A stretch of DNA of 64,000 bases from Candidatus Hermodarchaeota archaeon (GTDB lineage: Archaea > Asgardarchaeota > Lokiarchaeia > Sigyniarchaeales > SOKP01): the NCBI GenBank assembly GCA_048885525.1, contig JBHLLP010000003.1, positions 74,851 to 138,850 on the forward strand, written 5' to 3'. This document shows positions 14,612 through 59,271 of the stretch, piece after piece. Position numbers and translations under genes: made by a program. How positions within the stretch are numbered: the stretch's first letter is position 1; each line of letters opens with the position of its first letter. The notes under the pieces were generated by a model that saw nothing but the letters and a program-made list of their open reading frames with translations, ran no database searches and had not been told where the DNA came from.

Positions 14612-15415
14612 TTAAAATTCGTCCATATCTTCATCTTCATCAAATTCTGCTTCTTCAACTCTAGGTGCTAAGAAGTAGCTCAATTCGCCACCTTCAAGAA
14701 GATTAAATATCATTTTTAAGGGGTGATCCGTTTTTAGAGATATTTCTAACTTTTCCGTGATAGAAGCAATTTTTAATATGGCTTTTAAAAAAGTTAATGA
14801 ATATGCTCCACTACTGGTTCCATTAATATCCGTCTCTATTAAGTCATCTTCGCTTAGATTATATTCCATTTCACCAATTTGTCCCGTTGAACTAAATATC
14901 AACCCCTGACCTTCTGTTGAGGTCATGTTAAGGATTTCTGAATATATTTCAGCATCTTTTATTGCTTCAACTAAAAACTCTGGTTCAATTACCCATTTTG
15001 AAGGATATTCGATTTTTAATAAGTTATCCATAGGAATTTCTTCAATGTCGATATCTAATAACGCTAGGCTAAATGTTCTAGTACGTGTCATACCCTCGCG
15101 TTGCATTTTAATTTTTATTTTCTGATCAGCTTCATTAAAATCAATTTCAACGGAGTCATTCGCGGCAGATCTCTTCAAAATTTTATCTAAATCATCTAAA
15201 TTTAATCCAACTTTTGACTCCTTCGCACATTGATATTCATCAAAATTATCCTTTTTAATAGACAATTTTAATAAACAAATTCTACTAGGATCCATCGCTG
15301 AAATTGTAAACTCTTTAGGAGTAACTCGGAATTCCGTTTCATCAATAATACTTGCTAGAGTTTCAACAATTCCTTTCAATATCCGACTATTTTCTAATTT
15401 TAGTTTAAAACTCAT
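14612..15415 (-). CDS. pcn: DNA polymerase sliding clamp PCNA
   Basis: AMDPSRICLL, VGLNLDDLDKILKR, YSLTFL, LSYFLAPRVE. Confidence 0.96.
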   Translation of the reverse strand: MSFKLKLENSRILKGIVETLASIIDETEFRVTPKEFTISAMDPSRICLLKLSIKKDNFDEYQCAKESKVGLNLDDLDKILKRSAANDSVEIDFNEADQKIKIKMQREGMTRTRTFSLALLDIDIEEIPMDNLLKIEYPSKWVIEPEFLVEAIKDAEIYSEILNMTSTEGQGLIFSSTGQIGEMEYNLSEDDLIETDINGTSSGAYSLTFLKAILKIASITEKLEISLKTDHPLKMIFNLLEGGELSYFLAPRVEEAEFDEDEDMDEF

Positions 15416-56285: not shown

Positions 56286-57272
56286 CTAATCTTCCTCTTG
56301 ATCCCATCCAAGATCTTTTAAAACAGAGCCTAAAGCTTCAGATTCTTCTTCAAGTACAAATTCAGTATCATATTCTGAAGCAGAAATTTCTGAATCGAAA
56401 TCTGGGGGTGTTAATTCTTCAAATGATGGTAATTTATCGAGAGATGGCAATTTTTTAGGTATTTTGGGTTCTTCTGAAACAATTGTAGGCTCTTCTGAAA
56501 TGGGTTCTTCATCAATCTCCATAGGTGTATAATCATCAAGTGGAATTGGCGGTACTTCATCTTCATAAACTTTGAATAGGGTTTCGGAAGTTTTACTTTC
56601 TATTATTTGAGTTTTAGAAAGTTCAGCTGTTTCTTTTATTTCCTTATCTATCTCTAATCCGATTGATTGTGGAATCGACACAATACCCGTATCAATTCCG
56701 GCCTCAATTTCTTCGAATTCTTCACCTTCCTTCTCCCAATCATCCAAAAATCCTAATAAATCATCTAGAGCCGCTTTATCTTGTTCAAGTGAAGGTTTGA
56801 TTATAGGTTTTACTTCTTCTTCCACTTTCTGGTGTTCAATCTTTGCTATTTCTGATTCCTCAAGTGAAAGCATCATCTTTGTTTCTTGATCCGCAGAAAT
56901 GAGTTTATTCAATTTTTTTGCTAATTCTCTTAAATAACCTAAATAGTATCCGATCCTATAAATTGCCCTTAATCCTCCAAATACAATATACTCATCATTA
57001 ATTGCCACTAAAATACTATAACCTGATGTATTGTGTAAAATAATTTCTGTCAAAGCACCATGAGCAGTTGCTTGGTTTAATCTTAACCCTAAATCTATTA
57101 AAGCAGTACTAGAAGCAGAAGTGGCATCAGCATCTAATTCTGAAGTAGTTGAGCTTGCTACTTTCATTCCAACCCGGGATAAAACAGCAAGATTTTCTAA
57201 ATCGGTTTTGTTTTCTTCATCCTTTAAAACAAACATCATTTTTTTACGGATATCTTCCTCAATTGTTGACAT
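56286..57272 (-). CDS. Roadblock/LC7 domain protein with a long acidic C-terminal tail
   Basis: AVLSRVGMKVASS...DAD..SA....L..LG.R.......G.L.EIIL....GY.IL..I Roadblock pattern in aa 1-125, followed by ~200 aa rich in E/D/P/S. Confidence 0.8.
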   Translation of the reverse strand: MSTIEEDIRKKMMFVLKDEENKTDLENLAVLSRVGMKVASSTTSELDADATSASSTALIDLGLRLNQATAHGALTEIILHNTSGYSILVAINDEYIVFGGLRAIYRIGYYLGYLRELAKKLNKLISADQETKMMLSLEESEIAKIEHQKVEEEVKPIIKPSLEQDKAALDDLLGFLDDWEKEGEEFEEIEAGIDTGIVSIPQSIGLEIDKEIKETAELSKTQIIESKTSETLFKVYEDEVPPIPLDDYTPMEIDEEPISEEPTIVSEEPKIPKKLPSLDKLPSFEELTPPDFDSEISASEYDTEFVLEEESEALGSVLKDLGWDQEED

Positions 57273-57371
57273 TTACTTCCACTCCTTAATATAATATAGG
57301 ATTGAACACGATTATTTAATTTCGATTTATGTATAAATAGAAAGACTATTTTAATATATTTTATTATTACT

Positions 57372-58082
57372 TCATTTCAGAAATTTCATTAAATTCATTT
57401 GAGTTGGCAATGTTTTTTCAAATTTCTCGAAGGTATAACCCGATAATTGTGTTATTTGTTCCCTCATTTCATTGATAACATCTTCGGGGGATAAATTTTC
57501 TGTACTGATCATTAAAACTCCCTCTTTAGATGAAAGAAATTGTTTGTAATAAGATATAATAGTTATTAGATACTCTTTATCTACTTCATTCCATTCCTTT
57601 CTTATTTTTTCTAAAGAACCTCTTTGAATTATGCGTTTAATGATTGTATTTGGTTCCGCATATAAATAAAAAATGTAATCCTCTTTCCATTGAATAGAGT
57701 TATATGTGTCTAGTATTAGATTAAAATCCTTTTCTTTTAAATTCAGACTCTTAGAATATATTAAGACACATAAAGGAGTTCTATCTAAAATAATTATTCT
57801 ACCGTTGTATTTATTATCAAAATTTACAATATTTTGATTACGCCTGATAAGTTGTTGAAGAAAATGAAGTTCGCTTCTAAATCCTATTTGTTTATTTGAA
57901 GACCCAAAGGGCCAGGGAGGCTTTTTTACATATCTTTCTGGAAAAAATTTAAATTTATTATTATCTTTCACTTTCGATTTGAAAAGATTGAAAACTGTTG
58001 TTTTTCCTACTCCGTGCACACCTGCAATAGAAATTACTATGTTATCTTTAGAGCCTTTGTTTCTATAGATAGTTTTACTCAA
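57372..58082 (-). CDS. Deoxynucleoside kinase / thymidylate kinase-fold P-loop kinase with a C-terminal PIP box
   Basis: ISIAGVHGVGKTT, ELHFL, IILDRT, FYLYAEP..I.KRI.QRG, EYL; ends QMNLMKFLK. Confidence 0.8.
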   Translation of the reverse strand: MSKTIYRNKGSKDNIVISIAGVHGVGKTTVFNLFKSKVKDNNKFKFFPERYVKKPPWPFGSSNKQIGFRSELHFLQQLIRRNQNIVNFDNKYNGRIIILDRTPLCVLIYSKSLNLKEKDFNLILDTYNSIQWKEDYIFYLYAEPNTIIKRIIQRGSLEKIRKEWNEVDKEYLITIISYYKQFLSSKEGVLMISTENLSPEDVINEMREQITQLSGYTFEKFEKTLPTQMNLMKFLK

Positions 58083-58206
58083 TATATTTTACTCCTAATC
58101 AATAATATTAAATCGTAATAACGAAACTATGCTTTAAAATAAATACATCTAGACATTATTGATTTTTTTTGTTATTAAAATTTTATATTTGGGGGGTAAT
58201 GATATG

Positions 58207-59271
58207 TTAAAAATAAAGATATATGAGGATAATGATGACAATATTATAGAAGACACTGGTGAAAATTGTACTACTAATATTTCCATTTGTAAGTTCAAAA
58301 ATTATGCCTAAAGCCATAAACATTAAGAAATTTCCAAGAATAAAACTCACTCCAATTGGAAAAGAGAATAATAGCATTACAAGTGAATAAGCGAGCGCTA
58401 CTAGGAGAATCACATAAAAATCATTTTTAAATTTTTGTTTTAAGGCATTATGTAAAACTCCTCTGAAAACAATCTCTGCAGAGAATGCACCTATACTTAA
58501 AGTAATGGTTAGAAGAATTAACCATAATAAATCAGCATTTTTAATTATCTGGTTTTGGTTCTCTATACTTAATTTGACATCAAAAAAATCTAAACCTAAA
58601 TCTGAAAGGAAATTAATAAATGAATCTGAGATATAATTAATTAAAATTAATACAATAGCACCTAAAATTCCTATAAATAATCCTAAAAATAATTTTTTTG
58701 ACTCAGGGTAAAAACCTATTTTATTAAAACTATGTTTTTTATTATAAATATACCAAATTGGATACACACCAAATACCAATTGAGGAATTTGACTTAATAT
58801 AATTTGTTGAATACTTCCGGTTAATGTATCTAACTGAAATGAAAGAATAGTAAAGAGCAAAAAGAAGATAATTACCATAATGTAAATACAAGTTCCAAAA
58901 ACATTAATACCTTCTTTTAAATTCCAAGTATCTTTCTTTAAAATAAATTGTTGTTCTAGCTCGAGCTTTTTACTTGTAAAAATTAAACCTGGCTTTTTCT
59001 GAATTGAGGCTTTTTTAGATTCAGAAATCTTTTCTAATTCAGTATTACATAATGGACATTGATTTAAAATAGTAGATGTTATTATCGACCCACATCCAGG
59101 ACATTTTCTTGATAATTCTAGTTTTTGAGGAACTTGAGGTTTTACAAGTTTTTCACCTGGTTCAAGTTTAATAATTAATTTACCACATTTAGGGCAATAG
59201 GTTTCATTTTTTTCTACATTAGATCCACAATATACACAATATTTGATTTTTTTCTGATTGTCTTTTGACAT
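58207..59271 (-). CDS. Zinc-ribbon + CPBP/Abi-like membrane protein with degenerate protease motifs
   Basis: CVYCG..CPKCG..CPGCG..CPLC, then TM helices with SAEIVFRG. Confidence 0.75.
   Translation of the reverse strand: MSKDNQKKIKYCVYCGSNVEKNETYCPKCGKLIIKLEPGEKLVKPQVPQKLELSRKCPGCGSIITSTILNQCPLCNTELEKISESKKASIQKKPGLIFTSKKLELEQQFILKKDTWNLKEGINVFGTCIYIMVIIFFLLFTILSFQLDTLTGSIQQIILSQIPQLVFGVYPIWYIYNKKHSFNKIGFYPESKKLFLGLFIGILGAIVLILINYISDSFINFLSDLGLDFFDVKLSIENQNQIIKNADLLWLILLTITLSIGAFSAEIVFRGVLHNALKQKFKNDFYVILLVALAYSLVMLLFSFPIGVSFILGNFLMFMALGIIFELTNGNISSTIFTSVFYNIVIIILIYLYF

Follow-up and report, generated by a model that had tools for sequence, protein, structure and literature searches.

The Kinase Gene and Its Terminal Motif

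We investigated a stretch of 64,000 nucleotides (the window) from the genome of a Candidatus Hermodarchaeota archaeon (assembly GCA_048885525.1, contig JBHLLP010000003.1, positions 74,851 to 138,850 of the forward strand). The genome is 3.58 Mb long, has a GC content of 29% and is 99% complete. On the minus strand of the window lies a gene for a P-loop kinase of the deoxynucleoside kinase/thymidylate kinase (dNK/TMPK) superfamily, which is the subject of this study. A sequence-only reading of the window had proposed that this kinase ends in a PCNA-interacting protein (PIP) box and that it supplies or sanitizes DNA precursors at the sliding clamp. Our results confirmed the terminal PIP-box motif of the kinase. 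They show that the motif is selectively conserved, that it lies in a disordered tail gained in a specific lineage, and that the body carrying it is of the dNK/TMPK fold class.

The open reading frame (ORF) encodes 236 amino acids (aa), and its coordinates include the stop codon (table 1). It starts with TTG, 12 nt downstream of GGAG. Because the resulting N-terminus, MSKTIYRNKGSKDN, agrees with the N-termini of homologues, this start is correct. The protein ends ...EKTLPT-QMNLMKFL-K, directly before the stop codon. Residues 228-235 fit the pattern Q-x-x-[LIMV]-x-x-[FYW]-[FYW or hydrophobic], the last position being the nonaromatic Leu, so that translation bears out the proposed PIP-consensus match at the extreme C-terminus. 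The motifs named beforehand for the body (P-loop, DR and lid) were likewise all found, as GVHGVGKTT, D100-R101-T102 and RIIQRG. The gene named as that of the partner encodes a true PCNA according to Pfam (PCNA_N 75 bits, PCNA_C 33 bits), and PCNA_N was matched once in this genome.

Table 1. Positions in the window of the kinase gene, its segments and the gene of the proposed partner
Feature	Position	Strand	Basis
Whole gene, dNK/TMPK-superfamily P-loop kinase, 236 aa	57372..58082	(-)	ORF, Pfam, AF2 model, fold matches
N-terminal basic disordered extension, residues 1-14, MSKTIYRNKGSKDN	58041..58082	(-)	pLDDT ~40; conserved in family
P-loop GVHGVGKTT, residues 21-29	57996..58022	(-)	Translation; G21, H23, G24, G26 and K27 invariant in alignment
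D100-R101-T102, DRS/ERS-type motif of dNK and TMPK enzymes	57777..57785	(-)	D100 invariant, R101 nearly so
Lid segment RIIQRGSLEKIRKEWNE, beginning RIIQRG (R150, R154, R161, W164, E166)	57585..57635	(-)	Translation; R150, R154, W164 and E166 invariant
Linker EKFEKTLPT, residues 219-227	57402..57428	(-)	Letters vary, length fixed; pLDDT <50 from residue 223
PIP box QMNLMKFL (Q228, L231, F234, L235), then K236 and stop	57378..57401	(-)	Translation, conservation, predicted PCNA contacts
Single PCNA of the genome, proposed docking partner, 43 kb from the kinase gene and unlinked to it	14612..15415	(-)	Pfam PCNA_N, PCNA_C

Conservation of the PIP Tail

In a crude set of ORFs from the genome (3117 proteins), a loose PIP pattern was seen 288 times, and 8 proteins carried it at most two residues from the C-terminus, where ~2.7 were expected by chance. 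Since a lone terminal match is not rare by chance, the statistical weight of the kinase motif rests on its conservation. All 120 closest database homologues (74-100% identity) possessed a C-terminal or near-C-terminal Q-x-x-[LIM]-x-x-[FY], mostly in the form TQMNLxKFLK. Among 80 species-representative loci of Promethearchaeota, a PIP-type C-terminal motif was present in every complete gene (79/79), a few of which had a variant last motif position or a longer C-terminal extension. The strict motif Q-x-x-[LIM]-x-x-[FYW]-hydrophobic occurred within the last 22 residues of 183 out of 192 nonredundant orthologues, a pool in which database proteins were filtered to a length of at least 225 aa and locus-derived sequences were left unfiltered. 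Column entropy in this pool was 0 bits at the Gln, 0.89 bits at +3 (L/I/M), 0.59 bits at +6 (F/Y/W) and 1.37 bits at +7. Elsewhere in the tail, linker columns had 1.9-2.9 bits, and +4, which is the solvent-facing position in PIP complexes, had 3.0 bits.

The motif was also retained under strong divergence. The sister family f21 of the same order keeps it in different letters (NQSKLSDWV, NQKKITSWI, GQKVLDSWL), as do metagenomic cluster representatives with 36-47% identity (QAKLTNFI, QKFLTAWF, QQTLDKFW, QLKLDAFY), and all tail letters outside the motif differ in these two groups. A spacing of exactly 18 residues separates Q228 from the invariant I210, which closes the last helix, in 22 of 27 diverse sequences, even though linker letters are unconserved. 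The conservation of Q, L and F anticipated for the tails of orthologues was thus borne out across ~190 sequences and the sister family; it did not extend to more distant Asgard orthologues, from which the tail is missing. Within the kinase's own family, genus g3 (L170-L172) has replaced the Gln and kept the hydrophobic half and the terminal position (FKDISKFL, in KKKLENFKDISKFL before the stop codon). The genus g3 tail KKKLENFKDISKFL is a natural variant without the PIP Gln. The f21 kinases have Trp at +6 and the f21 Fen1 and DP2 have Phe-Phe or Phe-Leu; no signal of co-variation of such a PIP "dialect" between the f21 kinases and the f21 Fen1 and DP2 was found.

Three of the 8 terminal matches in the genome belong to the clamp clients Fen1 (QVSLDDFFK), PolB (QKDLSCFI) and PolD DP2 (QHKLSDFF), in each case directly before the stop codon. 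Because these proteins end alike, the tail of the kinase has the same format as bona fide clamp clients. The known archaeal C-terminal PIP clients (Fen1, PolB, PolD DP2, the RFC large subunit and RNase HII) resemble it in having a terminal Q-x-x-[LIM]-x-x-F-[FLI] on a disordered tail, and Fen1, PolB and DP2 share this format both in the present genome and in the sister family. The predicted PCNA site is the same as well. The kinase differs from all of them in its cargo, which has a nucleoside/nucleotide kinase fold and is no known DNA-acting enzyme.

Predicted Docking to PCNA

The complex was predicted from an alignment of the PCNA (chain 1) and kinase residues 203-236, together with three controls. 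The score was 0.64 (runs 0.66, 0.64 and 0.63) against 0.02 for the best of the three controls, and it passed a mark that 58 of 80 solved complexes and 2 of 110 mismatched pairs attain; because PIP-PCNA complexes have been solved, such a pass demonstrates likeness to solved complexes and may reflect memory. Agreement between the runs was at least 81% of contacts; the partner had a predicted local distance difference test score (pLDDT) of at least 56. Only residues 226-236 of the kinase touch PCNA in the predicted complex. Q228 contacts PCNA residues 206, 250 and 252, L231 contacts residues 41, 45-48, 132, 232, 248 and 250, and F234 contacts residues 248 and 250. The contacts of least predicted error are those of Q228, L231 and F234 with PCNA 41-48, 128-135, 231-232 and 248-255. 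In the model this docking has the canonical geometry, involving the Gln pocket, the hydrophobic pocket, the interdomain connector loop and the C-terminal strand. The sequence-only reading had suggested a complex prediction with this PCNA, and the motif was indeed placed in the canonical PIP pocket. Overall, the tail of the kinase very probably binds PCNA.

These data also bear on the explanation that the tail is not a PCNA ligand at all and serves instead as a motif for another partner, for oligomerization, or for membrane or self association. Such an explanation could appeal to the number of chance terminal PIP-like strings (~2.7 per proteome), to the last motif position, which is usually Leu or Ile and offers no second aromatic, to the loss of Gln in one genus, and to the location of the gene in a conserved triad with membrane and acidic-tailed proteins and no replication genes. 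However, Gln is present in all 183 of 183 sequences with the strict motif, the distribution of constraint over the positions is precisely that of a PIP box, +4 being the most variable, and the motif survives complete turnover of the other letters in f21. The terminal format is that of the genome's bona fide clamp clients, and docking is predicted in the canonical pocket, with controls at or below 0.02. An F-L ending, moreover, occurs in a crystallized archaeal PIP peptide, that of the Pyrococcus furiosus RFC large subunit. We therefore consider it unlikely that the tail serves a purpose other than PCNA binding.

The C-terminus of the PCNA itself (window 14615-14656, minus strand) was found to be an acidic extension with a terminal aromatic residue after LAPRVE, EEAEFDEDEDMDEF, followed by the stop codon. 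PCNAs of the sister family end EDDDDDSIYED, EEDDDSMYED and EDEDEEY, and those of other sampled Asgard families end APR[IV]E.E. Because many local PIP tails end in Lys, the acidic extension could modulate PIP binding.

Fold Class and Active Site of the Enzyme Body

The body of the kinase belongs to the dNK/TMPK superfamily and is nearest to dNK; Pfam, a PDB-sequence profile search, Foldseek and the VIA aligner agree on a body of this kind, as the sequence-only reading had expected. Pfam dNK (PF01712) matched with 44.7 bits (cut-off 27) over profile positions 1-198 of 203. The match to Thymidylate_kin (PF02223) was partial (34.8 bits), covering the C-terminal half of the profile (positions 79-181 of 185). 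All 24 aligned family members matched dNK, and 23 of them matched TMPK also. The NCBIfam dTMP kinase equivalog TIGR00041 scored 36.9 bits, far under its cut-off of 83.25. In the PDB-sequence profile search dNKs came first (8puu, 1.9e-14; 2jas/2jaq, ~2e-13) and TMPKs next. The AlphaFold2 (AF2) model had a mean pLDDT of 85.7 and a predicted TM-score of 0.81, with the domain at 84-97; residues 1-11 and 223-236 are disordered in it, the latter with pLDDT below 50. The leading Foldseek matches of the model were Giardia deoxyadenosine kinase (dAK), human deoxycytidine kinase (dCK) and Mycoplasma mycoides dAK. VIA, which is independent of Foldseek, gave Z values of 20.1 for dNK, 19.3 for TMPK, 19.1 for deoxyguanosine kinase (dGK) and 16.9 for the thymidine kinase (TK) of herpes simplex virus 1 (HSV-1). 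These fold scores, obtained with a predicted model, do not separate dNK from TMPK or deoxynucleoside monophosphate (dNMP) kinase.

Compared with the PF01712 dNKs (Giardia dAK 8puu, M. mycoides dAK 2jaq/2jas, Drosophila dNK, human dCK and dGK), the fold is alike (Foldseek E 1.8e-9, TM-score 0.71-0.78; VIA Z 20.1 with a root-mean-square deviation of 2.9 over 194 residues). Both share the P-loop, D/E-R-S/T, a conserved Tyr-Leu and a lid that is rich in Arg and has a Glu behind it, and the kinase has a Glu close to the one that follows strand 2 in dNKs. The kinase is, however, only 19-23% identical to them; the P-loop His, a Glu in the Gln column and a 5-residue lid insertion are its own, and the basic N-terminal arm and the C-terminal PIP tail are added. 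TMPK (PF02223) and herpesvirus TK have comparable fold scores and share the DR-x motif. With its GxHGxGKTT P-loop the kinase is similar to HSV-1 TK, an enzyme possessing both TK and TMPK activity. From TMPK the kinase differs in its equivalog score below the cut-off, in its Pfam match to the C-terminal half only and in the presence of a separate canonical TMPK in the genome. TMPKs are marked by an Asp in the P-loop (GxDGxGK) and by DR[YHF]; the kinase has His23 in the P-loop and D-R-T/S instead.

The P-loop Lys, E49, D100-R101, R150, R154, R161 and E166 are invariant, some of them nearly so, and position 102 is T or S. To judge from the alignment, these residues fit an active kinase. The general base of dNKs is the Glu after strand 2 (E52 of Drosophila dNK). 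E49 is invariant in the tail-bearing set, and hidden Markov model (HMM) alignments to 8puu and 2jas set it 1-2 residues off the dNK Glu. In the same alignments the column of the base-binding Gln (F-x-x-Q of dNKs) holds the invariant E71, and F68 pairs with the Phe; Q76 and Q77 lie 5-6 residues downstream of E71 in this comparison of the base pocket by sequence alignment only. Aligned with that of 8puu, the lid is longer by an insertion of 5 residues. Because of E71 in the Gln column and this insertion, the family departs from textbook dNKs, possibly in its substrate too.

Distribution of the Kinase and Gain of the Tail

Among the sampled genomes of the class, the kinase gene was present in 106 of 112, comprising 96 of 102 in its own family and all 10 in the sister family f21. 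At a threshold of E <= 1e-20, 8 genomes from four other families of the class gave no match. A phylum-wide search gave clear orthologues (~200-240 bits) in three further Asgard families (f7, f12 and f18). These proteins are 194-222 aa long and end right after the last helix, without a tail; one tail-less cluster is labelled Jordarchaeia/Freyarchaeota. Because it is absent from these more distant Asgard orthologues, the PIP tail is a lineage-specific addition to a kinase that is older within Asgard archaea, and it occurs in two families of a single order. The tail-bearing cluster representatives also have a basic, disordered N-terminal extension of 7-76 aa with a net charge of +2 to +15, against 0-7 aa in the tail-less ones, a comparison of only 8 with 9 representatives whose sequences are related.

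A Micrarchaeota relative, P0147, ends KQRSLKEFNCSKD, which we treated as chance. The search for viral relatives gave one weak fragment only in IMG/VR. A search of proteins of 414-2000 aa at E <= 1e-10 gave no fused or longer forms, which is weak evidence.

Genomic Context and Nucleotide Metabolism

The genome has a canonical TMPK at C8:33101-33640 (152 bits), by which the kinase is ruled out as the sole dTMP kinase; nor is it the housekeeping one. A Guanylate_kin match (51.9 bits) on C6 likewise rules it out as the missing archaeal GMP kinase. A class III ribonucleotide reductase (RNR) was detected with 462 bits, and obligate salvage due to a missing RNR is thereby ruled out; class I/II RNR and TK1 were not found in the genome. 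Neither was a second dNK-like gene. The kinase is thus the only candidate deoxynucleoside kinase of the genome and does not fill an obvious gap among its nucleoside monophosphate kinases. Membership in a defence system found no support in PADLOC, whose matches were insignificant (VakA, E 1e-4 with no passing stretch; PifA, E 0.0018). The public runs holding the stretch listed no RNA run, only DNA runs from sediment metagenomes.

The kinase gene lies in a co-directional triad (window 56286-59271, minus strand), between the gene of a zinc-ribbon and Rce1/CPBP-like membrane protein and that of a 328-aa protein with an acidic tail and no Pfam match. This triad was conserved in 74/74 and 69/70 species-level loci and partly in f21, and it is absent around the tail-less orthologues. 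Its members have no evident link to replication and give no functional lead.

The other terminal PIP-type matches among the 8 include two DUF72 proteins and one leucine-rich-repeat protein. The DUF72 (PF01904) paralogues are L008 (G000:C36:28119-28919), ending ...NQKRLSEFF, and L007 (G000:C32:800-1681), ending ...GQVGLDKFIK. The final 14 residues contained Q..[LIMV]..[FYW]-hydrophobic in 113 of 120 homologues of L008 (59-100% identity). No function has been assigned to the UVDE-like TIM barrel of DUF72 (PMC11791011), and these paralogues may represent a PCNA-guided repair nuclease. The 558-aa leucine-rich-repeat protein L004 (G000:C17:2035-3711) has YQKKITSFF at its very C-terminus, which matches a PIP-type motif perfectly. 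In the sister family, the PolD DP2 frames of L196 (G089) and L197 (G083) encode 1703-1713 aa and were matched by the query in two separated pieces, which suggests an intein or another insertion.

A Proposed Role at the Sliding Clamp

Based on these results, we consider it reasonably probable that a dNK-like kinase is tethered to PCNA by its terminal PIP box and that the tether couples precursor recycling to DNA synthesis. The kinase has gained two appendages in one Asgard order, a basic disordered N-terminal arm and a C-terminal linker of fixed length (7-9 residues) ahead of a canonical PIP box at the very end. Q228 would enter the Gln pocket of a PCNA subunit, and L231, F234 and L235 would enter the hydrophobic pocket under the interdomain connector loop, at the docking site that Fen1, PolB and PolD also use. 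This would keep the kinase domain next to the front face of clamps loaded on DNA, where it would most likely phosphorylate deoxynucleosides or dNMPs that are salvaged or are released by proofreading or by flap or patch processing, so that precursors might be recycled at the sites and times of DNA synthesis. That the enzyme acts on a nucleoside or nucleotide substrate is probable. Local supply or recycling of precursors as the purpose of the tether is a more tentative proposal, which we regard as somewhat doubtful.

Several points weigh against this reading. The tail is missing from the orthologues of f7, f12 and f18, and the Gln is replaced in genus g3; fold scores fail to tell dNK from TMPK or dNMP kinase, and E71 and the lid insertion depart from textbook dNKs. 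The triad neighbours show no clear tie to replication, and the docking pass could come from resemblance to solved complexes. Furthermore, the rationale of channelling is incomplete, because one kinase step (deoxynucleoside to dNMP, or dNMP to the diphosphate) yields no deoxynucleoside triphosphate (dNTP).

To our knowledge, PCNA clients almost always act on or regulate DNA, and the terminal-PIP set of this genome (Fen1, PolB, PolD DP2 and the two UVDE-like DUF72 proteins) agrees with this. The kinase might accordingly act on DNA itself, for example as a dNK-fold 5'-OH polynucleotide kinase or as a DNA-end or lesion kinase, recruited by PCNA to nicks and gaps, where it would make ends ligatable while the basic N-terminal arm holds the DNA. 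The chemistry of dNKs, phosphorylation of the deoxyribose 5'-OH, is the chemistry that a DNA 5'-kinase needs. The PIP tail co-occurs with the basic disordered extension that the tail-less orthologues lack, the short linker of fixed length sets the catalytic domain at the clamp face, and the base-binding Gln of dNKs is replaced. Nevertheless, a DNA kinase appears quite improbable, considering that the closest structures are all mononucleoside or mononucleotide kinases, that Pfam matches at E up to 1 included no polynucleotide kinase family, and that the lid, with its invariant E166 and Arg residues, is similar to that of dNKs, where it closes on a free nucleoside. The contrast in N-terminal extensions, for its part, comes from only 8 against 9 related representatives. 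No polynucleotide kinase fold was among the best 50 VIA or the best 50 Foldseek matches, which is no exclusion.

Precedents exist for linking precursor metabolism to replication. The dNTP synthetase complex of phage T4 and the mammalian "replitase" concept both tie precursor metabolism to the replication machinery; the latter is cited in PMC9299187. Both rest on weak multi-protein associations, whereas here the link would be a plain, genetically encoded PIP tail on the archaeal enzyme itself. In fission yeast, Spd1 links RNR control to PCNA via a PIP motif (PMC5448002). Spd1 is an inhibitor and no enzyme, unlike the kinase.

Spd1 is also a precedent for a link of PCNA binding to dNTP metabolism (PMC5448002), and the kinase might have a different role, mainly that of a regulator or nucleotide-pool sensor and not of a supplier. 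The PIP tail would then occupy PCNA in the manner of p21, the Thermococcales TIP or Spd1, tuning clamp use to the status of dNTP precursors, or else binding to PCNA would restrict the activity of the kinase to periods of DNA synthesis. With a short linker of constant length, the state of the domain could gate access to the tail, and the closest 119 homologues, at 74-91% identity, are more conserved than appears necessary for a simple salvage enzyme. The lid of the dNK family changes its conformation on binding substrate or feedback-inhibitor dNTP. However, all residues of catalytic type (P-loop Lys, E49, D100-R101 and the lid Arg) are invariant, as in an active enzyme, the tail is disordered in the monomer model and not docked back on the domain, and inhibition of PCNA is not directly supported by any result. 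A regulatory role therefore seems very improbable.

We rate the kinase, a dNK-like enzyme with a probable PCNA-binding tail, as a PIP client whose cargo is of a new class. In a term search, a 2016 review of archaeal PCNA-binding proteins was seen to mention no nucleoside or nucleotide kinase (PMC4929162). Full-text searches on a PIP box of deoxynucleoside or thymidylate kinases and on PCNA or PIP in Asgard archaea gave nothing relevant, and the sequence-only reading's claim that no archaeal example had been described held in the literature searched.

The idea of a replitase, or of dNTP channelling, is old and has proved difficult to demonstrate in any organism. A metabolic kinase with a PIP box under strong selection would offer a testable and genetically simple case of precursor metabolism wired to the sliding clamp. 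If the substrate were DNA instead, the protein would represent a new class of archaeal end-processing enzyme, built from a nucleoside kinase, a PIP tail and a basic DNA-binding arm. Asgard archaea are the closest prokaryotic relatives of eukaryotes. The kinase gene is near-universal in a large order of these archaea, and the tail-less orthologues elsewhere in Asgard provide natural controls.

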